Of a stretch of DNA of 40,985 nt, positions 8,206 to 40,985 are shown piece after piece; position 1 is the first letter of the stretch; the number at the start of each line of letters is the position of its first letter. Position numbers and translations under genes: made by a program. The notes under the pieces are model-generated. The model saw only the letters and a program-made list of their open reading frames with translations. It had not been told where the DNA came from and searched no databases. Source of the stretch: Parcubacteria group bacterium (GTDB lineage: Bacteria > Patescibacteriota > Patescibacteriia > UBA2169); NCBI GenBank assembly GCA_016177305.1, contig JACOVK010000061.1, positions 1 to 40,985 on the forward strand, written 5' to 3'.

Positions 8206-8577
8206 TTAAAAATCCATGGGCTCAAACTGGGCCTGGTGGTGCCTGATGCGCAGTTTTCCCGGACCAGAGCCTGGGCTGATGGTAACCACATCAATCCTGA
8301 AGTTCTCTACTCCGTTTAGGCTAATGTAAGCAAAAATTGTCTTCCGAAGCTTTCGTTGTTTTTCAAAATCAATTGATTGCTCCGGAAGGCCGCGCAAATT
8401 TTTGAGCCTGGTTTTTACTTCAACAAAAACGGTTTGGTCCTGGTCCTTGGCAATGATGTCAATCTCCCCAAACCTGCTCGTAAAGTGCTTTTTGAGTATG
8501 CGAAATCCGCGGCGCGACAAATACCATGCCGCAATGTTTTCTCCCCGTGTTCCCAAATTCTGCGAAGCCTGGCCCAT
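8206..8577 (-). CDS. yraN: YraN family (UPF0102) endonuclease-like protein
   Basis: GENIAAWYL..RGFRIL.....SRFGEIDIIAKDQDQTVFVEVKTR matches the YraN pattern. The ATG at 8577 overlaps the upstream stop (TGATG). Confidence 0.8.
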   Translation of the reverse strand: MGQASQNLGTRGENIAAWYLSRRGFRILKKHFTSRFGEIDIIAKDQDQTVFVEVKTRLKNLRGLPEQSIDFEKQRKLRKTIFAYISLNGVENFRIDVVTISPGSGPGKLRIRHHQAQFEPMDF

Positions 8578-9627: not shown

Positions 9628-10848
9628 TTACTCCATCGCATCAACAATCCTCCGAACCGCAACCATAAACGCGGCAGTGCGCAGCTCAACTCCGTGTTTC
9701 TTGTGCGTATCCCAAACAGCGTTGAACGCGTTTTTCATAACCAACTCAAGCTTGGCAAGCACTTCCCGCTCGCTCCAGTGCTCCCGAGCGAGGTTCTGGC
9801 CCCACTCAAAGTAGCTCACCGTGACCCCGCCGGCGTTCGTGAGCACGTCCGGAGCAACGTAGATTTTTTTTGACCAAAGGATCCCGTCTGCCTCGGGCGT
9901 GGTGGGCCCGTTCGCAAGCTCCAAAACAATCTTTGCGCGGACAGCGCCCGCATTCTCCGCGGTAATCTGGTTCTCAAGCGCGGCCGGAACCAAGATATCG
10001 CACTCCTGCTCTAACATTTCCTGATTCGTGACCTTGGTTCCGGCCGCATAGTCAATCACCGAACCTTTTTCCTGCTTGGCTTTCATAACCGCTTCAAGGT
10101 CCAGGCCGTTCGCGTCGTACACCCCGCCTTTTGAATCTGAAACACCCGCGATAACATACCCAGCGCGTTGCACGAGCTGTGCGAAGTGGTAACCCACGTT
10201 TCCAAACCCCTGAATAACAACCCGCCTTCCGGCTGACTGCATGCCCAGAGAGGCCGCAAGCTCTTCCAGCACGTAAAAGCCGCCCTGTCCGGTTGCCGTG
10301 CCCCGGCCCTCGCTTCCGCCGTACTCAAGGGATTTTCCGGTAAATGCTGCCGCTGTCTTGTCGCCGCTAATTTTTCCGTACTCATCCGCCATCCAGTCCA
10401 TGATTTTCGGATTGGTGTTTACGTCCGGCGCTGGCACGTCTTGGTGCGGGCCAATGTGCTGCGCCATGTTCTGCACCCAGCCGCGCGCGAGCCTTTCCAG
10501 TTCGGATTGCGAAAGCTCTTTCGGGTTCACGGAAACTCCGCCCTTGCCCCCGCCCATAGGAATGTTTACGACCGCGGTTTTGATGGCCATCCAGAACGCC
10601 AAGGCTTTTACCTCGTCCAAATCCACCTGCGGGTGGAAACGGATGCCGCCCTTGTATGGGCCCCTCGCGTTGTTGAATTGCACGCGGTAGCCCTTGAATG
10701 ATTTCTGTGAACCATCATCCATGGCGACCGGGATATCAAACTCATAGATGCGGTCCGGCTCTTTGAGCTTCGCAACCTCGCCCAAATCAAGTCCGAGATG
10801 GGCGGCGGCACCGTCCAATTGCCGCATTGCGTTACTGAATGCTAACAT
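9628..10848 (-). CDS. gdhA: Glutamate dehydrogenase (Glu/Leu/Phe/Val dehydrogenase family)
   Basis: Motifs KGGIRFHP, PMGGGKGG and GFGNVG (the NAD(P) Rossmann motif). I used the ATG at 10848; the track ORF begins at a TTG. Confidence 0.9.
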   Translation of the reverse strand: MLAFSNAMRQLDGAAAHLGLDLGEVAKLKEPDRIYEFDIPVAMDDGSQKSFKGYRVQFNNARGPYKGGIRFHPQVDLDEVKALAFWMAIKTAVVNIPMGGGKGGVSVNPKELSQSELERLARGWVQNMAQHIGPHQDVPAPDVNTNPKIMDWMADEYGKISGDKTAAAFTGKSLEYGGSEGRGTATGQGGFYVLEELAASLGMQSAGRRVVIQGFGNVGYHFAQLVQRAGYVIAGVSDSKGGVYDANGLDLEAVMKAKQEKGSVIDYAAGTKVTNQEMLEQECDILVPAALENQITAENAGAVRAKIVLELANGPTTPEADGILWSKKIYVAPDVLTNAGGVTVSYFEWGQNLAREHWSEREVLAKLELVMKNAFNAVWDTHKKHGVELRTAAFMVAVRRIVDAME

Positions 10849-10908
10849 AGCTCTTCGGTGAATATTAAAAATATACAAACAAACGTTTGTTGCTAGCCGC
10901 CGCGGCCG

Positions 10909-11835
10909 CTACGCTGCGGCTTTTTCCAGCCAGCGCTCCGCATCCAGTTCCGCGGCGCAGCCGGAGCCTGCTGCGGTAACTGCCTGGCGGTACTCGTGGT
11001 CGTGCACGTCTCCGGCCGCAAACACGCCGGGGACGCTCGTCATCGTGCGGTCCTTGAGCACCACATACCCTTTTGCATCAAGCTCAAGTTGGCCTTTGAA
11101 AATTTCCGTATTCGGTGTGTGTCCAATGGCCACAAACAATCCCTGGCACGCGATTTCAGATTCTTTGTTGGTCTTGTTGTTTTTCACGCGCACGCCAGTG
11201 ACGGAATTCTCACCGAGCACCTCAATCACTTCCGTGTTCCAAGTGAATTTGATTTTCGGATTTTTCCTGGCGCGCTCCTGCATGTACGCGCTCGCGCGCA
11301 ATGCATCCCGCCGCACCAGCACGGTAATGGTGTTTGCAAACTTGGTGAGGAACAGGCTGTCTTCCATTGCCACGTCTCCGCCGCCGACCAGCACTATGTC
11401 TTTGCCCTTAAAAAAAAACCCGTCGCATGTGGCGCAGCTGGAAACGCCTTTGCCGCGCAGGCGCTGCTCGGATTCCAAACCAAGCCACCGTGCGGACGCG
11501 CCGGTTGCAATAATCACGGCCGCTGCCTGGTATTCGTCCGCCCCAACCCACACAGAAAAAGGCTGCTTGGAAAAATCAACCGTATCAACTGCCTTATCAA
11601 TTATTTTTGTTCCAAAGCGTTCAGCCTGCTTGCGCATCCTGGCCATAAGCTCCGGGCCTTGGATTCCTTCCGGAAAACCCGGATAGTTCTCTACCTCTGT
11701 GGTGAGCGCGAGCTGGCCGCCGATTTCAATACCGCTGAAAAGTGCTGGTTTAAGCTGTGCCCGAGATGCATAAATTGCCGCAGAATACCCCGCGTTTCCG
11801 GATCCAATAATAATAAGTTTATGCGGTTCAGGCAT
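10909..11835 (-). CDS. trxB: Thioredoxin-disulfide reductase
   Basis: IIGSGNAGYSAA (FAD-binding), the CATCDG redox centre and GGGDVAMEDS. Confidence 0.93.
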   Translation of the reverse strand: MPEPHKLIIIGSGNAGYSAAIYASRAQLKPALFSGIEIGGQLALTTEVENYPGFPEGIQGPELMARMRKQAERFGTKIIDKAVDTVDFSKQPFSVWVGADEYQAAAVIIATGASARWLGLESEQRLRGKGVSSCATCDGFFFKGKDIVLVGGGDVAMEDSLFLTKFANTITVLVRRDALRASAYMQERARKNPKIKFTWNTEVIEVLGENSVTGVRVKNNKTNKESEIACQGLFVAIGHTPNTEIFKGQLELDAKGYVVLKDRTMTSVPGVFAAGDVHDHEYRQAVTAAGSGCAAELDAERWLEKAAA

Positions 11836-11841
11836 AGTTTT

Positions 11842-11855
11842 GGCTAATATTAGCC
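11842..11855. promoter_or_regulatory. Perfect 14-bp palindrome GGCTAATATTAGCC, copy 1, in the trxA-trxB intergenic region
   Basis: Read directly. The 19-nt string TTTTGGCTAATATTAGCCT recurs at 12509-12527. Confidence 0.6.
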
Positions 11856-11856
11856 T

Positions 11857-12177
11857 TTAATTAGCTACTGAATCTAATTTTACCTTTATATCTTCTTTTT
11901 TATGAAGCCCAACCAATACTTCGGCGGGTTTTCCGTCTTTAAATATAATGATTGTTGGAATACTCATAACCCCGTACCGGGAGCTTGATTCTTGATTCTC
12001 ATCAACGTTTATTTTGGCTATTTTTAGCCCTTTTTCCTCATCAGAAAGCTCATTAATAATGGGCCCTTGGATTTTGCACGGCCCGCACCATGGAGCCCAA
12101 AAATCAACAAGTACCACGCCCGAGACCTGCTCAACTTCTTGTTTAAAATTTTGATCAGTAAGTTCTATTGCTGGCAT
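11857..12177 (-). CDS. trxA: Thioredoxin
   Basis: WCGPCK active site, 106 aa. Confidence 0.95.
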   Translation of the reverse strand: MPAIELTDQNFKQEVEQVSGVVLVDFWAPWCGPCKIQGPIINELSDEEKGLKIAKINVDENQESSSRYGVMSIPTIIIFKDGKPAEVLVGLHKKEDIKVKLDSVAN

Positions 12178-12512
12178 GTGTTTTTTATTAACGATGTAGG
12201 GCGAGCGAAATGCAAAGCTAAAAGCTTAGCATTTCCGATGCCCACGAGCTAGTATATATTATAATTTTAATTCAGCATACTGTCTAATAGTAATAATTAT
12301 AGTACTGTGGAAGAAGTGGAAAAGGCTGTTTTTTGGCTAACAGTAGGAATAAACAGGAAATAATTTTTACTAATAACTGTGGTGCGTTGGGGGAGTATAC
12401 TATGGAGTCTTTGTGTATAACATTTGTCAGGAAAAATCCTGACAAGTTATAACAAGCACATGCGCACAGAAAATAAACAAACACCTGTTGAGTTTTACAC
12501 AGGGAATATTTT

Positions 12513-12526
12513 GGCTAATATTAGCC
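12513..12526. promoter_or_regulatory. Perfect 14-bp palindrome GGCTAATATTAGCC, copy 2
   Basis: Identical to the copy at 11842-11855. It is embedded in the AT-rich region next to the DnaA-box-like repeats. Confidence 0.6.
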
Positions 12527-12550
12527 TATTCACAGGAAATCCACAGGCAA

Positions 12551-12559
12551 TGTGGATAA
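12551..12559 (-). promoter_or_regulatory. Perfect DnaA box (TTATCCACA on the minus strand)
   Basis: The + strand reads TGTGGATAA. Weaker boxes: 12412-12420 (1 mismatch), and 12493-12501, 12526-12534 and 12537-12545 (2 mismatches each). Confidence 0.5.
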
Positions 12560-12607
12560 CATTTTAGTGCTATTTTTGCGAGATAGTTATGTTATATTTT
12601 TCTTGAC

Positions 12608-12648
12608 AAACCAAAGATACCCCTGGTTGTGACCAGAGGTATCTTTGG
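12608..12648 (-). terminator. Long hairpin terminator after tRNA-Ala(CGC)
   Basis: CCAAAGATACC.../...GGTATCTTTGG forms a 16-bp stem with 1 mismatch. Its 5' arm starts with the tRNA CCA end, and TTTG follows on the minus strand. Confidence 0.55.
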
Positions 12649-12721
12649 TGGACCTGAGGAGAATTGAACTCCTGGCCTTCGCAATGCGAATGCGACGCTC
12701 TACCAGCTGAGCTACAGGCCC
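12646..12721 (-). tRNA. tRNA-Ala(CGC)
   Basis: GGGCCTG TA GCTCAGCTGGTAGAGC G TCGCA TTCGCAT TGCGA AGGCC AGGAG TTCAATT CTCCT CAGGTCC A CCA. G3:U70 is present. Confidence 0.92.
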
Positions 12722-12782
12722 GCGTCAGCCGCGCGTTGCGGCTTCCGTATCCGGGCTTCGCCCGAATACTCCAGCCTCCACA

Positions 12783-12842
12783 CGCGTCTTCCTTTCAGAT
12801 TTTTTCTTAACTCCGCTAAACGCGGAGCCCAAGAAAAAATCT
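12783..12842. repeat. Copy 2 of the conserved hairpin element. Same outer stem as copy 1, inner stem CTCCGC/GCGGAG.
   Basis: Outer arms at 12797-12808 and 12831-12842, inner arms at 12811-12816 and 12822-12827. The flank TCTTCCT is conserved. Confidence 0.7.
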
Positions 12843-12879
12843 GCGAGAGAGTTTTTAATTTGTTCAATACTGAACAGTT

Positions 12880-12955
12880 TGGTGTCCTCACCAGGACTTG
12901 AACCCGGATCAATGGCTTAGGACGCCACTGCTCTATCCAATTGAGCTATGAGGAC
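12880..12955 (-). tRNA. tRNA-Arg(CCU)
   Basis: GTCCTCA TA GCTCAATTGGATAGAGC A GTGGC GTCCTAA GCCAT TGATC CGGGT TCAAGTC CTGG TGAGGAC A CCA. The anticodon loop gives CCT. Position 32 is G, which is unusual. Confidence 0.85.
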
Positions 12956-13104
12956 GCGATGTAGTCGGATTACATATTTTCTTCGCGTGCAGGTTTGGCC
13001 GCATCAAATTTTTGTTTAAAAATTGACATATTTAATCAAAAATGTTATTATTTTGTTCAACCCATCATGATTTTTTTGACATTTTTAACGAATTATGGTA
13101 TTTC

Positions 13105-13181
13105 TGGTGGACCCGGCGGGGCTCGAACCCGCGACCTTTAGTATGCCATACTAACGCTCTAACCAGCTGAGCTACGGGCCC
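13105..13181 (-). tRNA. tRNA-Ala(GGC)
   Basis: GGGCCCG TA GCTCAGCTGGTTAGAGC G TTAGT ATGGCAT ACTAA AGGTC GCGGG TTCGAGC CCCGC CGGGTCC A CCA. G3:U70 is present. Confidence 0.92.
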
Positions 13182-13852
13182 AAATGTATTATTTTAGGTA
13201 TTTCTTGAAGCTCAAGTAGTATGTCCGCTGAAAAATAATTAATCCTGCAAACTCCCTTATAATCTGGTTTTTTTGATGGTTTTCCTATGGTTCGGGGATC
13301 AATTCTTGCTTTGTAGAATAGAGTCAGCGGAATTAATGTTATGTTTGACCAAAACAACTCAAGCGAACCAATATTTTGATCAGCGCGGCACTGTATTGTG
13401 CACCTGAATTTCATCTCATCAATAGTATAGCAGTTACGGAGAAGGCGCAAGAATAAGCTTATAATGAAAGGCGAGGAGTTTCCAAACGTAATGACCCCTC
13501 GGGTTTTTGATGACCCCTCGGTTATATATAGCAGAGCGAGCGCTATTTTTGCGATGTCAGGATTATAGAGCGCTGATGCGAGGGCGGCGTTGCGTTGTCG
13601 GATTATTTGCATGTAGGCAACGCGCCTCGTTCTGTTGGTCGCCGCAGCATATGTGCGAGCTCGGGCAAGGTTGTCAAGAATCAATACCCTCATTTTTTGT
13701 TCGTACCAGCCTGGAAGTTTAATATCTCTGCACCAGTGGGAAAGGGTTCCTTTTGAGATAGGCACCTTAACCGCTTTCTGGATTTCAGCATATGTCCCCC
13801 CTTTTTTTCGCAGCGAAACAACTTTTTTTTTGATGCGTTTGTGGTATGCCAT
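13172..13852 (-). CDS. AT-rich ORF with an N-terminal HTH and a LAGLIDADG-like endonuclease domain (putative homing-endonuclease-like protein)
   Basis: HTH-like segment GGTYAEIQKAVKVPISKGTLSHW. The segment LALLYITEGSSK..ITFGNSSPFIISLFLRLLRN resembles the LAGLIDADG motif and its following pattern. The composition is clearly more AT-rich than the neighbours. The last 10 nt overlap the 5' end of tRNA-Ala(GGC). Confidence 0.45.
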   Translation of the reverse strand: MAYHKRIKKKVVSLRKKGGTYAEIQKAVKVPISKGTLSHWCRDIKLPGWYEQKMRVLILDNLARARTYAAATNRTRRVAYMQIIRQRNAALASALYNPDIAKIALALLYITEGSSKTRGVITFGNSSPFIISLFLRLLRNCYTIDEMKFRCTIQCRADQNIGSLELFWSNITLIPLTLFYKARIDPRTIGKPSKKPDYKGVCRINYFSADILLELQEIPKIIHLGP

Positions 13853-14004
13853 GATAATACTGTACCATAGAATGACTGTATGTACAACATAGGTTCAAAA
13901 CGCAATTCAATATATGTGGTTTTTAAGGGCGCCAATTAATGAGCACTGTTTTTATTATTTTACGAAGAAACCAGGTTCAGGTATAATGGAGGAATTATTA
14001 ATAA

Positions 14005-14448
14005 GTGTCCTCTATGGCAATGTTCAACGGAAAAGAGAAGGGAGAAAAACAAAAAGGGTTTGAAATGAAAGAAGGGGAGATTGAAACCATCATCGGCGCG
14101 AGCGTAAAAGTGGAGGGGGATTTTAAGAGCGATGGGGATGTGCTGGTGCAGGGGATTGTGAATGGAAGTTTAAAAACCAAAGGCAACCTAAGAGTGGAAG
14201 AAGGGGCTAAGATTAAAGCAAATGTGGAAGCCGCGAATGCGAGCGTCCGTGGCGAGATCGCGGGAAACGTGACCGTAAAAGACAGCCTCCAGCTCGGGGA
14301 ATCCGCGAAAATCGCGGGGGACATCATCACAAAAATTCTTTCCATTGAGCCTGGGGCAGTGCTGCACGGCCACTGTTCAGTTTCCGCCATTGAGCCTGAA
14401 GCCGGCAATGAGCCCGCCATCGTGCAAAAACCGAAAAAAGAAGCTTAA
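14005..14448 (+). CDS. Bactofilin (polymer-forming cytoskeletal protein, DUF583)
   Basis: Repetitive beta-helix pattern: IIGASVKVEGDFKSDGDVLVQGIVNGSLKTKGNLRVEEGAKIKANVEAANASVRGEIAGNVTVKDSLQLGESAKIAGDI. The start is GTG at 14005, with alternative ATGs at 14014 and 14020. Confidence 0.8.
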   Translation: MSSMAMFNGKEKGEKQKGFEMKEGEIETIIGASVKVEGDFKSDGDVLVQGIVNGSLKTKGNLRVEEGAKIKANVEAANASVRGEIAGNVTVKDSLQLGESAKIAGDIITKILSIEPGAVLHGHCSVSAIEPEAGNEPAIVQKPKKEA

Positions 14449-14451
14449 TGT

Positions 14452-15249
14452 ATGTATGCGTACTTCATTGATGATTGGGTGTACGAAAAACATCACCGGA
14501 CATTGGACAAACTGGACCTGCTCCTGACCCAGCAGGGGGTTTCCGGAAGGAAGATACGGCTCTCCCGGCTTTCTGATATGAACGCCAGCATCAGGGACTG
14601 CATTGGAAGCGGCATTAAGACTCTGGTTGCGGTTGGAAACGACGTTACCGCGAGTCGGCTTTTGAACCACGCGCAGAGCCTTAAGCAGAAGGATGCTTTT
14701 TCGTTTGCGTTTTGCGTGGTTCCCATAGGCGAGCCCAACGAAGTAGCGCGCCTGTTCGGGATTCAATCCCTTCCAGATGCCGCGAGTGCGCTTAGCGCTT
14801 GCCAGACCCGGCTGTTTGACCTCGGGCTCTTGAACCAGCGCCACTACTTTGTTACGGCAGCAATCTTCCCTAAAAAATCCGCGCTGCGCTTCCGTTCGTA
14901 CTCCGTGAGCTCCCTGCATCAGGATCACCACCTAAGCGTGTGCAACGGCGACATCTACCGCACCAAAGAAACCGCCGCTTCCAAAAAATTCGTTCCGGAC
15001 GATGGCGTGCTTGAGGCGGTGATTGCGTACCGCCCGAGCGTTTCGTTTTGGAGCCGCGTTCGGGGCAGGCAAGCGAGCGGAGAATACCAGCCCGAAAGCT
15101 TTTTTCCCATAAAAAAGATTACCGTCAGGGGCGCTTCAAAGACCATTTCCATTTTTGCGGACACCGAAAAGCAGCTTTCGTCCCCCATAGACGTGGAAGT
15201 AGTTGCGAGGGAGCTTGAAGCCGTGGTGCGCTCAAAGCGCGCCGCATAG
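14452..15249 (+). CDS. Diacylglycerol-kinase catalytic-domain-like (YegS/LCB5-like) protein with a degenerate nucleotide motif
   Basis: The layout ..IKTLVAVGNDVTASRLLN.. corresponds to ..vva.GGDGT..evvN.., but GGDGT is replaced by GNDVT. Confidence 0.5.
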   Translation: MYAYFIDDWVYEKHHRTLDKLDLLLTQQGVSGRKIRLSRLSDMNASIRDCIGSGIKTLVAVGNDVTASRLLNHAQSLKQKDAFSFAFCVVPIGEPNEVARLFGIQSLPDAASALSACQTRLFDLGLLNQRHYFVTAAIFPKKSALRFRSYSVSSLHQDHHLSVCNGDIYRTKETAASKKFVPDDGVLEAVIAYRPSVSFWSRVRGRQASGEYQPESFFPIKKITVRGASKTISIFADTEKQLSSPIDVEVVARELEAVVRSKRAA

Positions 15250-15256
15250 GCCGAGG

Positions 15257-15574
15257 CTATCCTCGGTTTTGCGTTACCATCTCGGCCGAAAGCCGGGGCT
15301 TGTTTTTTGCGAGCTGCGCTGCTGCTTCTGCTTCAATAGCGCGCGCCACGCTGTCTTCCACAACCATCTTTTCTTTGGTGATGGAAATCACCTGGTCGCG
15401 GTGGATGAGGAGCTCTTCTTTGCTGAAGAGGTGTGAAATGCCGCCCGGCGCAACCCGGTACTGGTACAGGCTCTGCGTTTCAATGTCAACAATGGCGCCC
15501 GCAACCTTTCCCAGGCGCTGGTTGCTTTGGGTTTCTACCGGAAGGTTTAAAATATCATGAAGCGAGAGCAGCAT
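15257..15574 (-). CDS. PRC-barrel domain protein
   Basis: LNLPVETQSNQRLGKVAGAIVDIETQSLYQYRV is a typical PRC-barrel N-terminus. 105 aa. Confidence 0.65.
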   Translation of the reverse strand: MLLSLHDILNLPVETQSNQRLGKVAGAIVDIETQSLYQYRVAPGGISHLFSKEELLIHRDQVISITKEKMVVEDSVARAIEAEAAAQLAKNKPRLSAEMVTQNRG

Positions 15575-15590
15575 AGTGGCGGTTTTGGGG

Positions 15591-16313
15591 CTATTGCGGC
15601 TGCGGGGCTCGTGCCGGCTTTTGGAACAGTATGATCTGCTGGATGAGCGTGGTGAGCGTGTTGATGGTCCAGTATAAGGTCAAGCCGCCCGGCAAGCTGG
15701 CGCCGAACACAACCGTGATCACCGGGGCGATGTACAGCATCTGCTTGTTCATCATGCTGGTCATGCTCTCGTCCGCTGATCCGGGGAGGGCGGGCTGGCG
15801 CTTGTGCACCAGCATCCTGGTTTGCAAGAATTGCAAGGCGCCCGCGATAACGGCGACGACGATGCTTGATTCCTTCAGGTCAAACACTCCGAGGAACACC
15901 ATATTGACCGCGCCCGGCTGCGCGACAAACGAGTAGAGCGCGTCAACACTTCCGGCGGCCACCTCGTCCCTAAGCACCTGGAAGATGGCGAGCAAAAAGG
16001 GCAGCTGGACCAAGAGCGGCAGGCAGGAAGAAAACGGGCTGACCTTTTCCTGCTTGTAGAGCAGCATGAGTTCGCGGCCCTGGCGCTCGCGGTCGTCTTT
16101 GTATTTTTTACGCAGCTCATCAACCTTCGGCTGGATTTCCTGCAGCGCTTTCTGCGAGTGCAGTGAGCGCGCGGAGAGCGGGTACAGAATTATTTTAACC
16201 AATACCGTGAGGCTGATGATAGCCCACCCGAAATCATCGCCCGGAATAATGTTGTGCAGCCAGACCAGGAGGTTCAAAATCGGTTGGTAGAACAAGATGA
16301 CAAACGGATTCAT
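15591..16313 (-). CDS. yidC: YidC/Oxa1 family membrane protein insertase (short form)
   Basis: 240 aa with 5 TM. Synteny is yidD-yidC. The conserved segment is ..IISLTVLVKIILYPLS..S...M..iQP....l..KY. Confidence 0.9.
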   Translation of the reverse strand: MNPFVILFYQPILNLLVWLHNIIPGDDFGWAIISLTVLVKIILYPLSARSLHSQKALQEIQPKVDELRKKYKDDRERQGRELMLLYKQEKVSPFSSCLPLLVQLPFLLAIFQVLRDEVAAGSVDALYSFVAQPGAVNMVFLGVFDLKESSIVVAVIAGALQFLQTRMLVHKRQPALPGSADESMTSMMNKQMLYIAPVITVVFGASLPGGLTLYWTINTLTTLIQQIILFQKPARAPQPQ

Positions 16314-16317
16314 TGGG

Positions 16318-16551
16318 TTACCTTACTGGATCGTAGCCGCCTTGCGCCCATGGGTGGCAGCGCACAATTCGTTTTGATCCCATGGAGCACCCCTTCAGTA
16401 TACCAAATGATTGGATTGCGTCATACAGGTATTCTGAACACGTGGGGCGGTACTTGCAGGCGCCGTGCGGGAAAAACCCTTGCAACAACCCGTGGTCCGG
16501 GGACAGGGTCTTCTGGTAGATGCTGATGGCGAGGAGCAGGGCGCGTTTCAT
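16318..16551 (-). CDS. yidD: Membrane protein insertion efficiency factor YidD
   Basis: IYQKTLSP....CKYRPTCSEY signature. An ATGA overlap joins it to rnpA. Confidence 0.9.
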   Translation of the reverse strand: MKRALLLAISIYQKTLSPDHGLLQGFFPHGACKYRPTCSEYLYDAIQSFGILKGCSMGSKRIVRCHPWAQGGYDPVR

Positions 16552-33310: not shown

Positions 33311-34498
33311 ATGGCAAAAAAGCAAGCAAAAACTTACGAACTTCTCACCCGAGGCGTGGAACAAGTTGTTCCGGAAGAAGTTGCTGAAGGAAAGTTGCGA
33401 TCCGGCAAAAAATTGCGCGTGTACTTGGGAATTGATCCAACCGGATCCAAGCTTCATATTGGGCACAGCGTCCCACTCCGAAAATTACAAGCATTCGCCG
33501 ATGCGGGGCATGAAGCCATTTTCCTGATCGGCAGTTTCACGGCGATGATCGGCGATCCCACAGGCAGAGACGCCGCGCGCCAACCGCTCACACGAGAGCA
33601 GGTGGAAGCGAATTTCCAGACGTACAAGAAGCAGGCGGGCCGCATATTGGATTTTTCCAAGGTCACTATCCGCTACAACCATGAATGGCTGGAGAAACTC
33701 TCGTCCGCGGAAACGTTCAAAATAATGAGCCATTTTACCATACAGCAGATGCTCCAGCGCGACATGTTCAAGGAGCGCATGAAGCACGATGAAGACCTTA
33801 GCCCAATGGAATTCATGTACCCATTGATGCAGGCGTACGATTCCGTCGTTTTGGATGTGGATGCCGAAATAGGCGGCAACGATCAATTGTTCAACATGCT
33901 CTGCGGCCGGAAACTCCAAGAGCGGTACGGCAAGCGCGAGAAATTCGTCATCGCCACGAAACTCCTGGAGGGCCTGGACGGCCGCAAGATGAGCAAGACC
34001 TACGGCAATGCCGTAAACATTACGGACGAGCCGAACGACATGTTCGGAAAAATCATGTCTCTGCGGGATGATCTCATCATCCGGTACTTTGAACTGTGCA
34101 CGGACGTTCCTTTGGCAGAGATTGAGGGCATCAAGAAAAGCCTGAAAGCAGGCGGCAATCCCCGTGACGCAAAAGCCCGGTTGGCGCGGGAAATCGTTGA
34201 GATGTACCATGGCGCGAAAGCGGCACAGGCTGCGGAGAAAGAATTCAATGCAGTGTTTCGGTCCGGCGCTTTGCCCGCGGACATCCCAAAAAAGAAGGTT
34301 TCCGGCAAACAAAAACAAGCGGACGAGCTGCTTGTTGCACTGGGGCTTGCGCAATCCCGGTCAGAAGCAAAGCGCCTCATTGAACAGGGCGGCGTGCGCA
34401 TGAATGGCGCGGTTTTAAGCGATTGGAAAGAGCGCGTGGACATCAAAAAAGGCGCCGTTGTCCAGGTGGGCAAGAGGAGGTTTGTGGAAATCAGCTAG
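33311..34498 (+). CDS. tyrS: Tyrosine--tRNA ligase
   Basis: HIGH motif (LHIGHSV), KMSKT, and a C-terminal S4-like domain (SRSEAKRLIEQGGVRMNG). Confidence 0.92.
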   Translation: MAKKQAKTYELLTRGVEQVVPEEVAEGKLRSGKKLRVYLGIDPTGSKLHIGHSVPLRKLQAFADAGHEAIFLIGSFTAMIGDPTGRDAARQPLTREQVEANFQTYKKQAGRILDFSKVTIRYNHEWLEKLSSAETFKIMSHFTIQQMLQRDMFKERMKHDEDLSPMEFMYPLMQAYDSVVLDVDAEIGGNDQLFNMLCGRKLQERYGKREKFVIATKLLEGLDGRKMSKTYGNAVNITDEPNDMFGKIMSLRDDLIIRYFELCTDVPLAEIEGIKKSLKAGGNPRDAKARLAREIVEMYHGAKAAQAAEKEFNAVFRSGALPADIPKKKVSGKQKQADELLVALGLAQSRSEAKRLIEQGGVRMNGAVLSDWKERVDIKKGAVVQVGKRRFVEIS

Positions 34499-35708
34499 AG
34501 CTCGCCCGTGTTTTTTTGAGCATCCGCGCGCACAATTCAAGCGTGCGCTCCCCAAACAAGCGAGATGAAAATTTTTTCTGCACCTGTTTCCGGGCTGTTG
34601 CTGTGAGCGCGTTGAGGCTTGTTTTTGGCATGCGCATCACTTGAGTAATCTGATGCGCAAGCAGGCGCGCGCTCGGCCTTTCTATTAAAAATCCGGTTTT
34701 ATTGTGGGTGATAATTTCGGGCGCGGCCCCGCTTTTGACCGCAATCACCGGTTTTTGCATGGCCATGGCCTCGGCATAGACCAGCCCGAACGCTTCTCTG
34801 GTGGACGGGGCAACCACGATGTCGCCGAGCGCATAGAGCGTGGGCATTTCCGCGCGGCTGAATTCGGGCAGCAACGCAACACGCGCGCTGATGCCGATTT
34901 TTTTAGTGAACGCGTTGAGCTCGTTGAGCGATTCCCTTTTTTGCTTTGGGTTATGCCCCTCATTTGAGGGGGCCAGCAGATGGAGGTTGTTGAATGCCGG
35001 GTGCGCCAGCGAGAGCGCCCGCGCGGCCAGGCCAAACCCTTTCTTTATGTTTAATTCGCCCGCAGAGGTGAACGGCCGGGAGGGGAAGACCGCGTACACT
35101 TGTTTCGGGTCCAGGTTGTAGCGCTTGAGCAGCGCGGCGCGGGTTTTTGGGAGAGGCTTGAATTGCTTGAGATCAATGCCGTTGTAAATGACATTAATGC
35201 GGCGGCCAGAAATTCCCTGTTTTACAAATTGCGATTTCGCGTATGTGCTTACGCAGACTATGGCATCCCACGGGAGCCTGGCGAGTCCCCTCTGCAGGGC
35301 TACGCTCCGGTGTTGGGCGTTTTGTGCGTTGTGTGCATGCTCAATGAGCGGAATGCCGGGGAAGCGCCGCGTGATGGTCCGGACGATTGCCCTGGTTCGT
35401 GCCGGGCCATAGGGAAAGGTCAGGTTGTGGCAGTAGATGATGTCCGGGCGGATATTCGCAACGATTTCGTGAAGCCATTGCGCGAGCGAGCGCGCGCTTG
35501 GCGCGTCCGGCCTGCTGCGGTTGAGCAGCGGAGTTCGTATGAGTTCGCCAAAGCCAGTTCTGCGGAATGTGGTTTTTTTGTCCATGGAGCAGGTAAGGAC
35601 AGTGTTGTGCACCCCGCGCTCCTTAAAGTATGCAAGCTGGCTCGCCATCATTGCCTCAACTCCGCCGGTTGAGGGAGGAAACCCAAAACTAATGAATATG
35701 ATGCGCAT
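34491..35708 (-). CDS. Glycosyltransferase family 4 (GT-B)
   Basis: MRIIFISFGFPPSTGGVE... N-terminus and the E-x7-E region EAFGLVYAEAMAMQKPVIA. I used the ATG at 35708. Confidence 0.8.
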   Translation of the reverse strand: MRIIFISFGFPPSTGGVEAMMASQLAYFKERGVHNTVLTCSMDKKTTFRRTGFGELIRTPLLNRSRPDAPSARSLAQWLHEIVANIRPDIIYCHNLTFPYGPARTRAIVRTITRRFPGIPLIEHAHNAQNAQHRSVALQRGLARLPWDAIVCVSTYAKSQFVKQGISGRRINVIYNGIDLKQFKPLPKTRAALLKRYNLDPKQVYAVFPSRPFTSAGELNIKKGFGLAARALSLAHPAFNNLHLLAPSNEGHNPKQKRESLNELNAFTKKIGISARVALLPEFSRAEMPTLYALGDIVVAPSTREAFGLVYAEAMAMQKPVIAVKSGAAPEIITHNKTGFLIERPSARLLAHQITQVMRMPKTSLNALTATARKQVQKKFSSRLFGERTLELCARMLKKTRASSS

Positions 35709-36930
35709 AGCTATTGCTTTTTTTCTTTTTAAGGCTCTCCCCGCTGCCATTTTTACTTGTCCCTGCCGCATAGAGGGCAACGAAACGTTCGGAAATAATG
35801 TTCCAGGTGAAGCGCTCTTCAACCACGCGTTTCGCGTTTTCGCCGAGGCGCTTGGATTTTTCTTCGTCTGCAAACAGCGCATTGACCTTTTCCGCGATGT
35901 CAGTCGCGTTGCGCGGCTTAACAAAGAGCCCGGTTTCGTTTTCTTTCACAGCGAGCGGAATGCCGCCCTTGCGCGTGGCTACCACGGGTTTTGCGTAGTA
36001 CATGGCTTCCAGGATCACGATCCCCAGGGCCTCGTCAATCACCGAAGGCGCAATAATGACGTCTGCCCGCGCGTAGAGTTTTTTGAGCTTTTCGGATTTT
36101 TCGCGCCCGATGTAGCCGAGGATGTGGAGGTTTTTGAGGCCGAGTTCGCGCTTGATGGTTTTAAGTTTTTTCATTTCCGGCCCGTCTCCGACAATGAGTA
36201 CGTCCCCGTTGATTTTGGCCGCAGCTTTAATAATGTATTCAACCCCCTTTTCTTCGGTGAGGCGGCCCACAAAGAGCGCAACCTTTTTTCCGGAGAGGCC
36301 ATACCGCCAGTCAACGGATCTGGTGTGCTGCTTTTTTTTGTGCTCTTCGGTGTTGATGCCTCCGGGAATGATGTTGGTTTTCCGCTTGAGCTCATAGCGC
36401 GATTGGCCCTCAAACATGTCCAAAAACCACCTCCGCGTGTGCCCGGAGACCGCGGTGATGCGCTTGGCATCCTTGATTGAGTGCACGGTCATATTATAGA
36501 ACCTGCGGTCTTCCTTTATGTGCTTGAGGTCGCTGCCGTGCGTGGTGGCGATGTAGCCAACCCCGGTGAGGTCGTGCACATAGCGCGCGAGCATGGAGAG
36601 GAGCCCCAAGTGATGGAAATGGATGATGTCCGGCTTAAAATGTTCAACCGCGCGGATGGCTGTGGCCAGGTACGCGCGGTACAGCTTGGTGATTTCCGCG
36701 GCCGTAAGGTCTTTGTAGCGTTTTGAGTCCTTCAGCTCGGGGTGCCCGATGAACACGGGCAGCGGGAACGGCGGCGTAACGCGGAACTGCCGGACTTTGG
36801 GAATCTGCCTCCGCTCCGGGGCCACGAGCGCAACCTTGTGCTTTTTAACAACCTCTGCCATGAGGTTTCGCAGGAACGTGCCGGACCCGTTTCCCCAGAG
36901 TGGGAAGTCATAGAGATACAGTATGTTCAT
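35689..36930 (-). CDS. Glycosyltransferase family 4 (GT-B)
   Basis: MNILYLYDFPLWGNGSGTF... and EALGIVILEAMYYAKPVVAT. The ATG at 36930 forms an ATGA overlap with the ruvC stop. Confidence 0.8.
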   Translation of the reverse strand: MNILYLYDFPLWGNGSGTFLRNLMAEVVKKHKVALVAPERRQIPKVRQFRVTPPFPLPVFIGHPELKDSKRYKDLTAAEITKLYRAYLATAIRAVEHFKPDIIHFHHLGLLSMLARYVHDLTGVGYIATTHGSDLKHIKEDRRFYNMTVHSIKDAKRITAVSGHTRRWFLDMFEGQSRYELKRKTNIIPGGINTEEHKKKQHTRSVDWRYGLSGKKVALFVGRLTEEKGVEYIIKAAAKINGDVLIVGDGPEMKKLKTIKRELGLKNLHILGYIGREKSEKLKKLYARADVIIAPSVIDEALGIVILEAMYYAKPVVATRKGGIPLAVKENETGLFVKPRNATDIAEKVNALFADEEKSKRLGENAKRVVEERFTWNIISERFVALYAAGTSKNGSGESLKKKKSNSYAHHIH

Positions 36931-37442
36931 AATTGTTTCTCCTTGGCCGCGCCCCGCGCTGTTCCGGCGGTGAATGATTTGGTTTGCCCCGCACAAATGG
37001 CGATGGCGAGCGCGTCTGCCGCGTCATCGGGCCGAGGAATGGTTTTGAGCGCGAGAATGATTTTTACCATGCGCTGTATCTGCAATTTACTCGCCGCGCC
37101 ATAGCCGGTTAATGCCTGCTTGACCTGCAGGGGAGTGTACTCCTGGACTTCGCATCCCGCGCTCTTTGCCGCGAGCAGGATAACGCCTCTCGCGTGCGCC
37201 ACGGCAATCGCGGTTTTGGCGTTCTTGGCAAAAAAAAGCTGTTCCACAGCAATGCGGTTAGGCTTGTGTTTTTTGATGAGCCCCTTTATCCCATCAAAGA
37301 GTTCTTGCAGCCGGTCCGGCAGGGTGTCGGCCTTTTTGGTGGCGATAGTTCCAAAGGCTTCGGCGCGAAACGAGTCGTTCGTTTTTTTGATTACTCCAAA
37401 TCCGGTGTCAGCTATTCCTGGGTCAATACCGAGGATAATCAT
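36927..37442 (-). CDS. ruvC: Crossover junction endodeoxyribonuclease RuvC
   Basis: ILGIDPGIADTGFGVI..., the internal EQLFF segment and the C-terminal DAADALAIAICH-like segment. Confidence 0.9.
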   Translation of the reverse strand: MIILGIDPGIADTGFGVIKKTNDSFRAEAFGTIATKKADTLPDRLQELFDGIKGLIKKHKPNRIAVEQLFFAKNAKTAIAVAHARGVILLAAKSAGCEVQEYTPLQVKQALTGYGAASKLQIQRMVKIILALKTIPRPDDAADALAIAICAGQTKSFTAGTARGAAKEKQL

Positions 37443-38006: not shown

Positions 38007-38345
38007 TCAACCAAACACAAATAGCAGTTTCTCTCTTATCTTTTGGAATTCATCCCGAGGTATGCTCGCTATTTTTTTCTCTAACCGCTGCTTGTCAAGC
38101 GCGCGTATTTGATGGACGAGCACGACCGAATCATAGTCAAGCCCTGATGCATCCTTAGCCAGGAGGTAGGTGGTAAGCTTTCCTTGGGCGCCAAGGTTTG
38201 TGGTGATTGGCGCTATGATGACCGTGCTTAGGTGCTTGTTGAGGATATTGGCTTGCATGATCAACACAGGCCTAAAGCCCGCTTGCTCGTGCCCCCTGGT
38301 CGGATTGAGGTTTGCGAGCGCTATGTCGCCTTGATGGAAATCCAT
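38007..38345 (-). CDS. mazF: Type II toxin, PemK/MazF family
   Basis: GDIALANLNPTRGHEQAGFRPVLIMQ...LSTVIIAPITT. Confidence 0.85.
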   Translation of the reverse strand: MDFHQGDIALANLNPTRGHEQAGFRPVLIMQANILNKHLSTVIIAPITTNLGAQGKLTTYLLAKDASGLDYDSVVLVHQIRALDKQRLEKKIASIPRDEFQKIREKLLFVFG

Positions 38346-38348
38346 AGG

Positions 38349-38681
38349 TTACTTGATGGATGGCTGTATGGCAACCCATTCGTCTTCAGACGGCAGGTCG
38401 TCAAAATGCATCCGCGCCAAATCTTGCGCGTCTTCAGCAAGTCTTTTTTCTAGCACGCTATCCAATCGGGTAAGCTTCTCTCTAACGGGCGCTGACTGCA
38501 GAGCGTTATCAAACATGCGCTCCTCAAGTTTATCTATGATCGTTTGTTCGTTCTGCACAAAATCCTGGAAGAACAGGTTTGTGAGTCCCGAAAGCGTAAG
38601 GCCTCGCTCGCGCGCTTTTTGGGTTACCCGCTTTTTGATTTTGGCGTTTGTCCTGATGTTGATGGTGGTGTCTTTGATCAT
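38349..38681 (-). CDS. Cognate antitoxin with a ribbon-helix-helix (RelB/DinJ-like) N-terminus
   Basis: TTINIRTNAKIKKRVTQKARERGLTLSGLTNLFFQDF. It ends 3 nt upstream of mazF. I preferred the ATG at 38681 to the GTG at 38717. Confidence 0.65.
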   Translation of the reverse strand: MIKDTTINIRTNAKIKKRVTQKARERGLTLSGLTNLFFQDFVQNEQTIIDKLEERMFDNALQSAPVREKLTRLDSVLEKRLAEDAQDLARMHFDDLPSEDEWVAIQPSIK

Positions 38682-38709
38682 GGGATTAATGTGGTTGATG
38701 ATGCTGTTA

Positions 38710-38728
38710 GTATACACAATGTGTATAC
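38710..38728. promoter_or_regulatory. Operator-like perfect palindrome GTATACACA-A-TGTGTATAC overlapping the TA promoter -10 region
   Basis: 9-bp arms, 29-47 nt upstream of the antitoxin ATG. It contains TATACT on the minus strand. Confidence 0.6.
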
Positions 38729-38744
38729 AAAAGTCAAAACGCTC

Positions 38745-38774
38745 AAAAACAGCCCACTGATAAGGCGGGCTGTT
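38745..38774 (-). terminator. Rho-independent terminator of the pilin-like operon
   Basis: On the minus strand: AACAGCCC-GCCTTATCAGT-GGGCTGTT followed by TTTGAG. Confidence 0.75.
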
Positions 38775-38790
38775 GGTGATTCGTTGCTAC

Positions 38791-39411
38791 TCAATTACAG
38801 GGCGCGTCACTAAGGGTTCCCCCGTTCCTTCGGCACCTGTTTTCAGTCATAATGAGGCAGTTATTGGCCCCGCATCCTTTCGTGCACCTGCAGTAGGTCT
38901 GCTTTTCGCATTGCGCGTTATAGGTTCCCCCAAGGGTTTGGCACTCTGATTCTGACCGAGGTACGCAGAACAAAAGCCCGCCACCAACATCAAATTCACA
39001 AAGTCCGCTTGTGCCGCCCCCATCCCCTCCACTGCCCACGGTGTCGGAGAGCTGGTTTACGGTAAAGTTGACGATCACGAACGCGAGCATAATAATGACA
39101 ATGCCGATGACCGCGTTGCGGATGTTGCCCTTTGCTTCCGTAACCTGTTCCTCATTGCCGGAGGCAGTCATCCACCGGAAACCCGCATAGATGATCATAA
39201 TCACCCCGATGAGCGCCACGAACCCGAGCGCTATGTTCACGATTGCCGCGATTTTCTCGGGAAGGCTTGCGTCCCCTTGGGTGCCGAGCCCGGTTTCGGT
39301 TCCAATAATGCCGAGGTTGTTTTTGAGCTGGTTGATGCCGGACACCGCGTGCGCCGGAGCAGCGGCCAGGAAGATGCTTGCCAGGGCAAAGGTTGCGAGT
39401 AGGGTTTTCAT
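38791..39411 (-). CDS. VirB2/TrbC-like (T4SS-pilin-like) protein P1 with an 85-aa C-terminal 10-Cys module
   Basis: Signal peptide ..AAAPAHA. TM1, then the loop YAGFRWMTASGNEEQVTEAKGNIRNA, then TM2. A Gly-rich linker and a Cys-rich tail follow. Confidence 0.65.
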   Translation of the reverse strand: MKTLLATFALASIFLAAAPAHAVSGINQLKNNLGIIGTETGLGTQGDASLPEKIAAIVNIALGFVALIGVIMIIYAGFRWMTASGNEEQVTEAKGNIRNAVIGIVIIMLAFVIVNFTVNQLSDTVGSGGDGGGTSGLCEFDVGGGLLFCVPRSESECQTLGGTYNAQCEKQTYCRCTKGCGANNCLIMTENRCRRNGGTLSDAPCN

Positions 39412-39417
39412 AGGAGG

Positions 39418-39810
39418 TTAGGAGCCGAGCACGTCAATGAGTGATTTGGTGACAAAGTTGGTGATGACGAACGCGAAGAATACCACCACGAGCCCGATGA
39501 CCGCGTTCCGGATGTTTCCGCGCGCCTCGGTAACCTGTTCCTCGTTGCCGCCTGCGGTAATCCACCGGAACCCGGCGTACAGGATAAAGACGACCGCGAC
39601 CACCCCGACGAACCCGAGCAGGATGTTGATGATTGCCGCGATTTTTGAGTACAGCCCGGCATCGCTTGAAACATTAACGCTCCCGAGCCCGGTTATCCTG
39701 CCTATTGAGTCAAGCTTAAAACGGGCATTCCCAACCGCGCTCGCATGCGCCGCAGACGCAACTGCAAACGTGAGTAAAAACGATACAATAGTTTTAATTA
39801 TGGTGTTCAT
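39418..39810 (-). CDS. VirB2/TrbC-like pilin-like protein P2 (core only, no Cys)
   Basis: Signal peptide ..ASAAHA and the core YAGFRWITAGGNEEQVTEARGNIRNA between two TM helices. I used the ATG at 39810. Confidence 0.65.
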   Translation of the reverse strand: MNTIIKTIVSFLLTFAVASAAHASAVGNARFKLDSIGRITGLGSVNVSSDAGLYSKIAAIINILLGFVGVVAVVFILYAGFRWITAGGNEEQVTEARGNIRNAVIGLVVVFFAFVITNFVTKSLIDVLGS

Positions 39811-39843
39811 GGTCGTTGCCGCCACGAGTAGCTTGGGTTAGGG

Positions 39844-40509
39844 CTACAGCGGTGGCGGGATGTCGCCGAAATCTAAATTACCACCCGAATCCAGGTTAGG
39901 ATCTATGTCTAGGGGGTTAATTGCTTCACATTCGGACCTGGAAACAATATCTCCGCCAAGACTGCCTGGTCCGACGCAGTCGTCTTGGCTCATGACTTCA
40001 CAGAGTTCGCCGTTATTATAATATCTGCAGTAAACATCATCTCCGCTCAGGCCCTCCAGATTGATAGGCGTTGACGGTCGCGTTGGGCCGGTAATGTCCG
40101 CTATCTGATTCAAGGTAAAGTTCGTAACCACGAACGCGGCAAACACGACCACAATGCCGATGACCGCACTCCTGATGGTAGCCTTGGATTCGGTCACCAC
40201 CTCCTCGTTTCCGCCGGAGGACATCCACCTGAATCCGGCGTAGAACATCTGCACGAAGAAGATGATGCCGACAAAACCGAGGATGACGTTGATGATGTTG
40301 CCGATGACCGAAAGCACCGCGTCTTCGCTTGAGTAGGCGTCCGGTTTAACGCTGCCGGTTAATCCGCCCGTGACCGCGGTTGCGTCCAAAAATTTAAGCG
40401 CGTCCTGCCCGGCCTGGCTGCGTTGCGCAAATGCCGAGTGTGGGATTGCCAAGAGTCCTGCCAACCCAAAGCACAGGAGCAGGCTTGCGAGGATGAGGCG
40501 TGTGGTCAT
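39844..40509 (-). CDS. VirB2/TrbC-like pilin-like protein P3 with a 75-aa C-terminal 4-Cys module
   Basis: Signal peptide MTTRLILASLLLCFGLAGLLAIPHSAFA, core YAGFRWMSSGGNEEVVTESKATIRSA, and a tail containing C-x8-C-x7-C..LGG..C. I used the ATG at 40509. Confidence 0.6.
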   Translation of the reverse strand: MTTRLILASLLLCFGLAGLLAIPHSAFAQRSQAGQDALKFLDATAVTGGLTGSVKPDAYSSEDAVLSVIGNIINVILGFVGIIFFVQMFYAGFRWMSSGGNEEVVTESKATIRSAVIGIVVVFAAFVVTNFTLNQIADITGPTRPSTPINLEGLSGDDVYCRYYNNGELCEVMSQDDCVGPGSLGGDIVSRSECEAINPLDIDPNLDSGGNLDFGDIPPPL

Positions 40510-40553
40510 ACGACGGCTGATGCGGTTACCACCTAGTCTGCCTGACCTATGAT

Positions 40554-40982
40554 TCACTGCAGCACGCCGCCAATCTGCGAGGTAACGAAGTTGGTGATGA
40601 CCCATGCCAGCATGATGATGACGAGCCCGATGACTGCCTGCAAGAGCATTTTTCTGGCTTCGCCGACCTGTTCTTCATTCCCGGATGCAGTCATCCACTT
40701 GAACCCCGCGTACAAGATGATAATCACCGCCAGGATTCCCAAGAACCCGAGCAGGATATTCACCACATTCGCGATTGAACCTTTGAGGTCCTGGTTTTGA
40801 CCCACATTAATCTGGCTGGCATCCGTCACGCCAAATGGATCGGCTTGTCTTGAAGCATTTGCGTCAACACAGATTGAGTTGCTACAGACGAGTCCCGAAT
40901 CGCACGTGTTTGAGGCATTACACGCTGCGCCTTCAGCTACGGCACCAACCGCGGCCGGGACAACAAGCGCGATTGCCATCAT
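40554..40982 (-). CDS. VirB2/TrbC-like pilin-like protein P4 with an N-terminal 4-Cys segment; the 5' end may be cut by the window edge
   Basis: Core YAGFKWMTASGNEEQVGEARKMLLQA between two TM helices. The N-terminal part carries ACNASNTCDSGLVCSNSICV. Confidence 0.6.
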   Translation of the reverse strand: MMAIALVVPAAVGAVAEGAACNASNTCDSGLVCSNSICVDANASRQADPFGVTDASQINVGQNQDLKGSIANVVNILLGFLGILAVIIILYAGFKWMTASGNEEQVGEARKMLLQAVIGLVIIMLAWVITNFVTSQIGGVLQ

Positions 40983-40985
40983 TCC

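Follow-up and report, generated by a model that had tools for sequence, protein, structure and literature searches.

The question raised by this locus is what four adjacent genes for small, divergent membrane hairpins do on a Patescibacterial chromosome, apart from any recognizable secretion machine. The window analysed is a complete 40,985-bp contig (JACOVK010000061.1) of a 'Parcubacteria group' metagenome-assembled genome (MAG), and its last 2.2 kb are filled, according to open-reading-frame (ORF) calls, by four co-directional minus-strand genes, here termed P1–P4. A reading made earlier without database searches (the sequence-only reading) had described them as a tandem array of divergent VirB2/TrbC-like pilin paralogs that leaves the window, in a reduced genome, and had offered them as a candidate for an uncharacterized host-attachment system. 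ORFs, alignment and family scores bear out the array, and the organism is indeed a reduced Patescibacterium. The locus is not of an uncharacterized kind, because tandem arrays have already been published (McLean et al., 2020; Wang et al., 2023; Quinonero-Coronel et al., 2025); it is a further example of the VirB2-like pilin arrays of Patescibacteria. We propose, with moderate confidence, that P1–P4 are paralogous subunits of the VirB2-like type IV secretion pilins of monoderms and Patescibacteria, polymerized by a VirB4/VirB6 platform encoded at a distance.

Four hairpin proteins and their family

The array consists of the following features.

38791–39411, minus strand: P1, 206 aa, last gene of the array; Sec signal peptide ..APAHA/VS, PF18895 hairpin at residues ~50–123, Gly-rich linker and 10-Cys C-terminal domain of ~70 aa
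39418–39810, minus strand: P2, 130 aa from ATG 39810, with an alternative in-frame GTG at 39825; signal peptide ..SAAHA/SA and hairpin, no Cys and no tail, a minimal pilin
39844–40509, minus strand: P3, 221 aa from ATG 40509, the ORF being open to 40605; signal peptide ..HSAFA/QR, hairpin and C-terminal tail of ~85 aa with 4 Cys
40554 to beyond 40985, minus strand: P4, at least 143 aa, 5' end cut by the contig end; signal-peptide end ..GAVA/EG visible, then a 4-Cys N-terminal module and the hairpin
~38745–38775, minus strand: intrinsic terminator closing the array, with a 10-bp GC-rich stem and a U-run

The start of P3 was set at ATG 40509 because this gives a signal peptide and agrees with the orthologs. 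Gaps of 6, 33 and 44 nt separate the genes, and the single terminator after P1, noticed already in the sequence-only reading, has a folding energy of −21.5 kcal/mol (z = −4.5; 0 of 200 shuffled sequences fold equally well). An identical protein is deposited at NCBI for P1 (HYS45_02370, 'hypothetical protein', Parcubacteria group bacterium), and the counterpart of P4 is HYS45_02385.

All four proteins exceed the curated cutoff of 26.6 bits for PF18895 (T4SS_pilin; T4SS, type IV secretion system), with 51.6 (P1), 47.4 (P2), 30.0 (P3) and 50.4 bits (P4), and PF18895 is also the precomputed database annotation of the protein identical to that of the window. The best NCBIfam match is to NF045849, a pilin-like conjugal transfer protein (34–49.5 bits; cutoff 40), with P1 and P4 above the cutoff and P2 (39.6) and P3 (34) below it. 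A hidden Markov model (HMM) built from 128 relatives scores P1–P4 at 130–138 bits and raises no other ORF of the window above noise; given these scores and those for PF18895, the pattern is not a chance one. When the same family profile was compared by hhalign with six authentic VirB2/TrbC sequences from annotated conjugative plasmids, the whole hairpin aligned in register over 65 columns (E = 1.1e-4, probability 56%); PrgF of plasmid pCF10 matched over the same span and in the same register more weakly (E = 1.6e-3, probability 16%). By these profiles P1–P4 are members of PF18895 that stand outside canonical TrbC, and remote homology to VirB2 is plausible. N_methyl (PF07963), the class III signal of type IV pili (T4P), is matched by none of the four, whose signal peptides end in AXA.

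Alignment recovers across P1–P4 the loop motif written down in the sequence-only reading, YAGF(R/K)W(M/I)..GNEE(Q/V)V.E. The loop was there taken as the core, with the rest differing between paralogs; its invariance stands, but the conserved unit is the entire 72-aa hairpin, with 44–65% pairwise amino-acid identity as against 20–42% in the N-terminal parts. Over the whole proteins identity is 36–53%.

Each protein is predicted to have a cleavable signal peptide of the Sec type and, after it, two transmembrane (TM) helices with a short, charged and highly conserved loop between them (R/K-W-M-T-A-G-G-N-E-E-x-V-x-E-A-K/R). This architecture, first read from the letters, is now supported by hydropathy and AlphaFold2 (AF2). 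Hydropathy resolves an N-terminal signal segment (ending in AHA, AHA and AFA, and in AVA in P4, where it lies only partly within the window), followed by two hydrophobic helices of ~30 residues. In the AF2 models a signal helix is accompanied by a cleanly formed hairpin (mean pLDDT ~73, and ~80 within the hairpin). In P2 the helices span residues 53–85 and 90–129, with a four-residue turn at GGNE between them (G-G/S-N-E); in P1 the hairpin is joined by a small β domain (pLDDT 76–84).

Statistics over 367 family ORFs of related loci indicate how the hairpin would lie in the membrane. Lys and Arg together average 3.1 in the 18-residue loop, 1.0 in the 15 residues before TM1 and 0.5 in the 15 residues after TM2. 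Cys is nearly confined to the ends (0.12 per 100 aa in the hairpin core versus 5.1 in C-terminal tails); among 98 tails that reach 30 aa, two or more Cys are found in 91, and in 82 of these 91 the number is even. Charge and Cys distribution thus point to a cytoplasmic loop and to extracellular, disulfide-bonded termini, as has been described for the membrane topology of unassembled VirB2-type pilins (preprint 10.64898/2025.12.18.695078). Across hundreds of paralogs that are otherwise 25–40% identical, no element is better conserved than the cytoplasmic loop. An ectodomain is missing from most family members (of 530 ORFs, 359 have 180 aa or less).

Relatives and the region beyond the contig end

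With the window spanning the contig from end to end, it is a break in the assembly that truncates the array. Its continuation can be read from a syntenic locus, L081, on a 106-kb contig of the relative GCA_016181765.1, in which P1 is 83% identical. The order there is MurB (opposite strand), a GalU-like nucleotidyltransferase, a solute-binding protein (SBP) of the SBP_bac_1 family, pilin-domain genes of 420, 116 and 173 aa, one uncalled pilin gene, then genes of 142, 132 (P4 ortholog), 222 (P3), 119/142 (P2) and 210 aa (P1), followed by a RelB-like antitoxin, PemK, YebC, RuvC, TyrRS, a penicillin-binding protein (PBP) and DnaN. A second relative, represented by two loci of one MAG (L007 and L001), has the same order, and its contig also breaks within the array. 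P2 orthologs are 70–79% identical in L001, L081 and L082, and P3 orthologs 74% in L002, 57% in L081 and 55% in L007. A difference in length between L081 and L082 (119 versus 142 aa) proved to be a gene-calling artefact, the DNA being 99.9% identical.

This comparison of paralog number and order, which the sequence-only reading had called for, gives 8–9 pilin-domain genes in the orthologous arrays, so that the window probably holds four of 8–9 genes, the promoter-distal part of a chromosomal array. That reading had also allowed for a secretion machine just past the right edge. The corresponding region of L081 holds 4–5 more pilin genes, the SBP, GalU, MurB and purine-synthesis genes, and to judge by this synteny the missing sequence almost certainly contains further pilin genes followed by the SBP and GalU genes, rather than a gene for a secretion ATPase. 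The L081 array is divided after its first three pilin genes, ahead of the uncalled gene, by a strong hairpin and a TATACT box; the hairpin was seen by eye in the sequence and not called by the pattern scan. P1–P4 may accordingly form the end of a second transcription unit.

A scan with a degenerate motif, in which each GTDB species was represented by a single genome, yielded 80 loci, every one of them in Patescibacteria-type MAGs labelled Magasanik-, Uhr-, Komeili-, Falkow-, Kerfeld-, Kuenenbacteria or Parcubacteria; some are titled 'uncultured Gammaproteobacteria', which appears to be a placeholder name. Two or more pilin-domain ORFs are present in 75 of the 80 loci (range 1–13). The recurrent neighbours are SBP_bac_1 (38 loci), GalU (28), GT2 glycosyltransferase (19) and T4P-type N_methyl proteins (12). 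There are 57 arrays of at least four genes, 37 of them with at least 1.6 kb of upstream sequence; a co-oriented SBP gene inside the array or immediately ahead of it is likewise present in 37 arrays, and these two sets are not matched locus by locus. Examples of the SBP gene are L081 3742–5100, L007 705–2060 and L056 6839–8218. The L007 protein has a lipobox-like LGLGC, the SBP is usually preceded by a GalU-like nucleotidyltransferase, and no ABC permease or ATPase gene was noticed next to the orphan SBP. The co-oriented SBP lipoprotein and GalU of the relatives probably belong to the same functional unit as the pilins.

In Magasanikbacteria-type loci the GalU–SBP–pilin array is preceded by two N_methyl proteins (~600 and ~210 aa) and by a conserved 460-aa protein without a Pfam match. 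N_methyl genes lie upstream of GalU in L010, L023, L027, L031, L041, L044, L052, L054, L056, L058 and L069, making T4P-type and T4SS-type pilin genes neighbours in those loci.

In related genomes the hairpin is also found fused to large extracellular modules. In one type an N-terminal hairpin is followed by 0.8–3.4 thousand residues (kaa) that include Ig-like repeats of the Big_5, TIG and fn3 types, and in the other an N-terminal domain of 250–390 aa precedes a C-terminal hairpin. The gene that opens the orthologous array (420–443 aa) encodes a Cys-rich C-terminal domain of ~320 aa without a Pfam match. Hairpin fusions occur at the following positions.

L008 10001–18200
L013 7176–15784
L053 8661–19053
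L075 9794–19819
L032 7506–16081
L056 5462–6829 and 8221–9210
L081 5102–6364
L007 2063–3394

Pilin ORFs touch a contig end in many assemblies (the window, L001, L003, L004, L007, L009, L019, L020, L025, L026, L037, L049, L057, L060, L065, L067 and L073). Arrays presumably break in assembly because the repeated hairpin cores confuse short-read assembly, and copy numbers derived from MAGs are therefore lower bounds.

Conservation of the core in the DNA, and with it a capacity of the copies to recombine, had also been claimed from the sequence. Core DNA identity between the window paralogs is 52–69%, and 38–64% of the identical core residues are encoded by identical codons. The conservation thus exists but is modest, and because the longest exact common words are of 9–17 nt, the case for recombination between the window copies is weak; gene conversion or recombination among them was rejected as a strong claim. 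In L081 the uncalled pilin gene (~7459–7970), which has a Cys-rich N-terminus, reads on beyond the start of the next gene (7973–8401), and the ~66-aa hairpin cores of the two are almost identical, with one substitution. These adjacent cores point to duplication or gene conversion in the recent past, to a copy with a frameshift or to an error of assembly; from the sequence of this pair, duplication or gene conversion does appear to occur in such arrays. The P4 hairpin is 72–79% identical to paralogs without a Cys module (L081 8454–8852 and L007 4392–4907), and its 4-Cys N-terminal module (window 40830–40930) resembles that of other paralogs (L007 3684–4364 and L081 6819–7340), which suggests cassette shuffling between array members.

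Secretion pilins, membrane anchors or an uptake module

Arrays of this kind have been catalogued by Quinonero-Coronel et al. (2025; PMC12102498), who screened 3,035 genomes of Patescibacteria by means of PF18895, PF04956 and the pilin profiles of CONJScan. VirB2-like pilins were present in 1,948 assemblies also having VirB4, and lay near virB4 in 1,135 only. With an array defined as two or more divergent pilin genes in tandem or parted by one non-pilin gene, 441 tandem arrays of 2–11 divergent VirB2-like pilins were recorded in 383 Patescibacteria assemblies (identity 25% on average and 54% at most), and adaptation to different host strains was proposed for them (PMC12102498). The window genes, at least two divergent pilins in tandem, form an array by this definition. 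The first array was noted in TM7x (McLean et al., 2020; PMC7427843). Pilins within the T4SS cluster of Southlakia epibionticum are essential (Wang et al., 2023; PMC10633639) and are needed for its epibiotic growth (PMC10633639; PMC12857230). Patescibacteria pilin arrays are highlighted in a 2025 FEMS review (PMC12857230), and PF18895 is the dominant domain of freshwater-specific protein clusters in a 2026 preprint. What appears less explored, and was not found in the literature searched, is the seemingly invariable linkage to SBP and GalU in this clade (no mention of an SBP–array link was found there), the separation from virB4 and the range of terminal decorations.

The window array shares with the arrays of ML1 (SEML1_0006–0019 region) and TM7x (the 'Sec-secreted array') its Pfam family, its architecture, its divergent tandem paralogs and a chromosomal position near dnaN. 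It differs in that the ML1 and TM7x pilins lie inside a virB4/virB6 cluster, whereas the window and 83 Parcubacteria/ABY1-type loci have no T4SS gene within 10 kb; in the window, L081 and the related loci, the pilin genes are not found within or beside virB4, virB6, virB3 or trsD. Again unlike ML1 and TM7x, the window-type array, as seen in relatives, follows GalU and an orphan SBP and has several members with Cys-rich terminal modules.

Of the pilins outside Patescibacteria, PrgF of Enterococcus faecalis pCF10 resembles P1–P4 in its monoderm host, its small two-TM hairpin and its short charged loop, the acidic residues of which align. It differs in being a single-copy protein of 75 aa, encoded beside VirB6, VirB3 and VirB4 on a conjugative plasmid and without a PF18895 match, and its size suggests that it lacks a long signal peptide and N-terminal region. 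There is experimental support that this Gram-positive VirB2-like protein assembles into a pilus, its lumen being lined by the charged loop (ter Beek et al.; 10.64898/2025.12.18.695078). Canonical VirB2/TrbC (PF04956), such as the Agrobacterium T-pilin, has in common with P1–P4 a long signal peptide, a two-helix hairpin and the register ...NI..FLxG...G(I/F)xWM..., but the host of P1–P4 is a monoderm, no virB1, virB3 or virB4 is adjacent and the acidic GNEE loop is specific to their family. Tandem virB2 paralogs also exist in Bartonella and Anaplasma (cited in PMC12102498). The Mycoplasma proteins Mbov_0395 and MMCAP2_0565 represent NF045849, the best NCBIfam match; they are single genes in integrative conjugative elements with a relaxase and VirB4, in contrast to the chromosomal setting of P1–P4.

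As secretion pilins, the subunits would enter the membrane via Sec, with cleavage of their signal peptides. The resulting membrane pool of hairpins would then, by analogy with F, T and R388 pili and with PrgF, be extracted and polymerized by a VirB6/VirB4-type platform encoded elsewhere in the genome. On the same analogy, the conserved R/K...GNEE...K/R loop would line the lumen of a tube or stalk, or dock on the machine, leaving the termini outside. Plain subunits such as P2 might build the shaft and the Cys-rich modules of P1, P3 and P4 might be displayed on the filament surface as determinants of host contact or specificity; these variable modules sit at the ends that would be surface-exposed. 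Divergent paralogs might in this way give mixed or alternative filaments, suiting the epibiont to different host surfaces. That the loop is the most strongly conserved element fits a single assembly machine or a lumen-lining role rather than a passive membrane anchor. A common assembly partner is favoured because the loop is conserved, because most members lack an ectodomain and because the family is essential in ML1.

Several observations weigh against this assignment. PF04956 (TrbC/VirB2) matches P1–P4 below its threshold of 27.9 bits (12.6–23.4 bits; E from 6.9e-5, for P4, to 0.16), an authentic VirB2 scoring 63.8 bits; the VirB2/TrbC-like label of the sequence-only reading thus survives through PF18895, which all four match, and not through TrbC itself. 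A profile search of the PDB with 128 family members gave no solved pilin and only spurious 'Pizza' designer repeats, and Foldseek searches of the PDB with the P1 and P2 models gave only generic helical matches (E > 0.4); a bare hairpin has no power to discriminate, which makes this comparison uninformative rather than negative. No pilus of the PF18895 family has been visualized in any Patescibacterium. Hairpins fused to Ig-repeat proteins of 0.9–3.4 kaa fit poorly as major subunits of a tight helical filament. Finally, none of VirB4, VirD4, VirB6, VirB3 and VirB8 turned up in the 83 related loci in the 10 kb on either side of the pilin genes. In a six-frame translation of the window and these loci (1.28 Mb), phmmer searches with PrgJ (VirB4), PcfC (VirD4), PrgH (VirB6), PrgI, PrgK and PrgL of pCF10 returned nothing at E < 0.01. 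ORFs with a Walker A motif near arrays, considered as VirB4 or VirD4, proved to be FtsH, DnaA and a Mg-chelatase-like protein. A conserved 742-aa neighbour, considered as a T4SS ATPase, is PNPase, with S15 and an NYN protein alongside, and the other large neighbours among the top 25 of 91 families are housekeeping proteins. In the window itself, Pfam scans and phmmer found no T4SS or T4P component, the ATPases of these systems included, in the 38 kb to the left of the array, in agreement with the sequence-only reading.

This separation from T4SS genes, in the window as in the 83 loci, would be expected if the hairpin simply stayed in the membrane and anchored variable extracellular modules, with neither polymerization nor a T4SS. 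The ectodomains, which occur at either end of the hairpin, range from ~50 to more than 3,000 aa and include Big_5, TIG and fn3 domains, would suit such a display role, as would tails that are hypervariable between orthologs 70–90% identical elsewhere. We nevertheless consider passive display unlikely. The short proteins that make up most of the family, P2 among them, would have nothing to display; the best-conserved element is the loop and not the TM segments, and a passive anchor needs no such loop; it would be strange to build an anchor from a hairpin behind a cleaved signal peptide; and the homologous S. epibionticum pilins lie within an essential T4SS cluster.

A distinctly unlikely alternative combines elements of filament and display. 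The Parcubacteria/ABY1-type hairpin would have been freed from the T4SS cluster and would have acquired its own conserved GalU–SBP–pilin operon. The product would be a modular surface filament or display system, its exchangeable extracellular cassettes ranging between Cys-rich knots and Ig-repeat adhesins longer than 3,000 aa; together with the orphan SBP lipoprotein it would serve to attach to the host or to capture nutrients, possibly with no part for VirB4.

More doubtful still is a surface or uptake module in which the hairpins and the orphan SBP lipoprotein, perhaps with GalU, would make up a conduit or scaffold that captures sugars or other solutes derived from the host, maybe independently of VirB4. 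The same-strand SBP_bac_1 gene accompanying the arrays, including the orthologous loci L007 and L081, and the lack of a noticed transporter gene beside it would fit this idea, and reviews have speculated on uptake via the Patescibacterial T4SS or pilus (PMC12857230; PMC11665869). The argument is one of synteny, with the SBP part lying outside the window and extrapolated to the source genome; the gene order might stem from common regulation of genes for the envelope, with GalU and with GT2 and GT4 glycosyltransferases also nearby; and no known transport system pairs VirB2-like hairpins with an SBP. Highly improbable is the proposal that the proteins are soluble, Sec-secreted effector or toxin subunits exported by a T4SS, made for the TM7x array from its signal peptides and multi-gene layout by analogy with pertussis toxin (PMC7427843), since each mature protein has two hydrophobic helices of ~30 residues, each matches the pilin family above its cutoff and the original paper reported only 11% identity to pertussis toxin S1 (PMC7427843).

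Chromosomal setting and implications

The rest of the window is ordinary chromosome, encoding trigger factor, an acyltransferase, an H+-pyrophosphatase (PPase), NusA, glutamate dehydrogenase, a thioredoxin-reductase-like protein, four tRNAs, YidC, GyrA, S1, FtsH, DnaN, a class A PBP, TyrRS, two GT4 glycosyltransferases, RuvC, YebC and PemK. The array thus has a chromosomal, housekeeping setting without mobile-element genes, not far from dnaN. A type II toxin–antitoxin pair lies downstream of the array terminator and is kept at the same position in L081 and L082; a promoter-like TTGACT-17-TATACT for this RelB/PemK pair stands directly past the terminator, at 38737–38709.

38007–38345: PemK/MazF toxin
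38349–38717: likely antitoxin, 122 aa; the L081 ortholog matches RelB weakly, below the Pfam cutoff

Upstream of NusA, the window encodes a predicted surface protein of 561 aa (6257–7942, minus strand) that combines a signal or anchor segment with Ig-like repeats (weakly matching Big_7), a spacer rich in Pro and Glu, and a TM helix at the C-terminus. In L028, L040 and L048 the place upstream of the same NusA–PPase–trigger factor block is taken by a lone PF18895 pilin gene. Two GT4 ORFs, the longest frames of which overlap by ~235 nt, lie between RuvC and TyrRS (34491–36996, minus strand) and are not present in the otherwise syntenic L081; GT2 and GT4 genes beside many related arrays might hint at glycosylation of the envelope or of the pilins.

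Cumulative GC skew reaches its minimum at ~10–12 kb, adjoining a low-GC stretch (41.5%, 12–14 kb) with three tRNA genes. YidC lies at 15591–16313, with GyrA and DnaN within 16 kb; no dnaA was seen in the window. The region ~10000–16500 may be the replication origin region, which would place the array ~25 kb away. Such a placement would agree with a tendency remarked on in the literature, that of Patescibacterial T4SS genes to lie near the origin.

VirB2-like pilin arrays are among the few envelope features that are both enriched in Patescibacteria and experimentally essential. The locus described here adds no new kind to them, and its comparison with relatives sharpens three testable questions: why the arrays of this clade stand apart from virB4, why they are co-oriented with an orphan SBP and GalU, and why hypervariable disulfide-rich or Ig-like modules occur at both termini, the ends that would be exposed on the outside of a pilus. 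If these modules are host-recognition cassettes, the arrays would serve as a marker from which the host range of uncultivated epibionts could be read.

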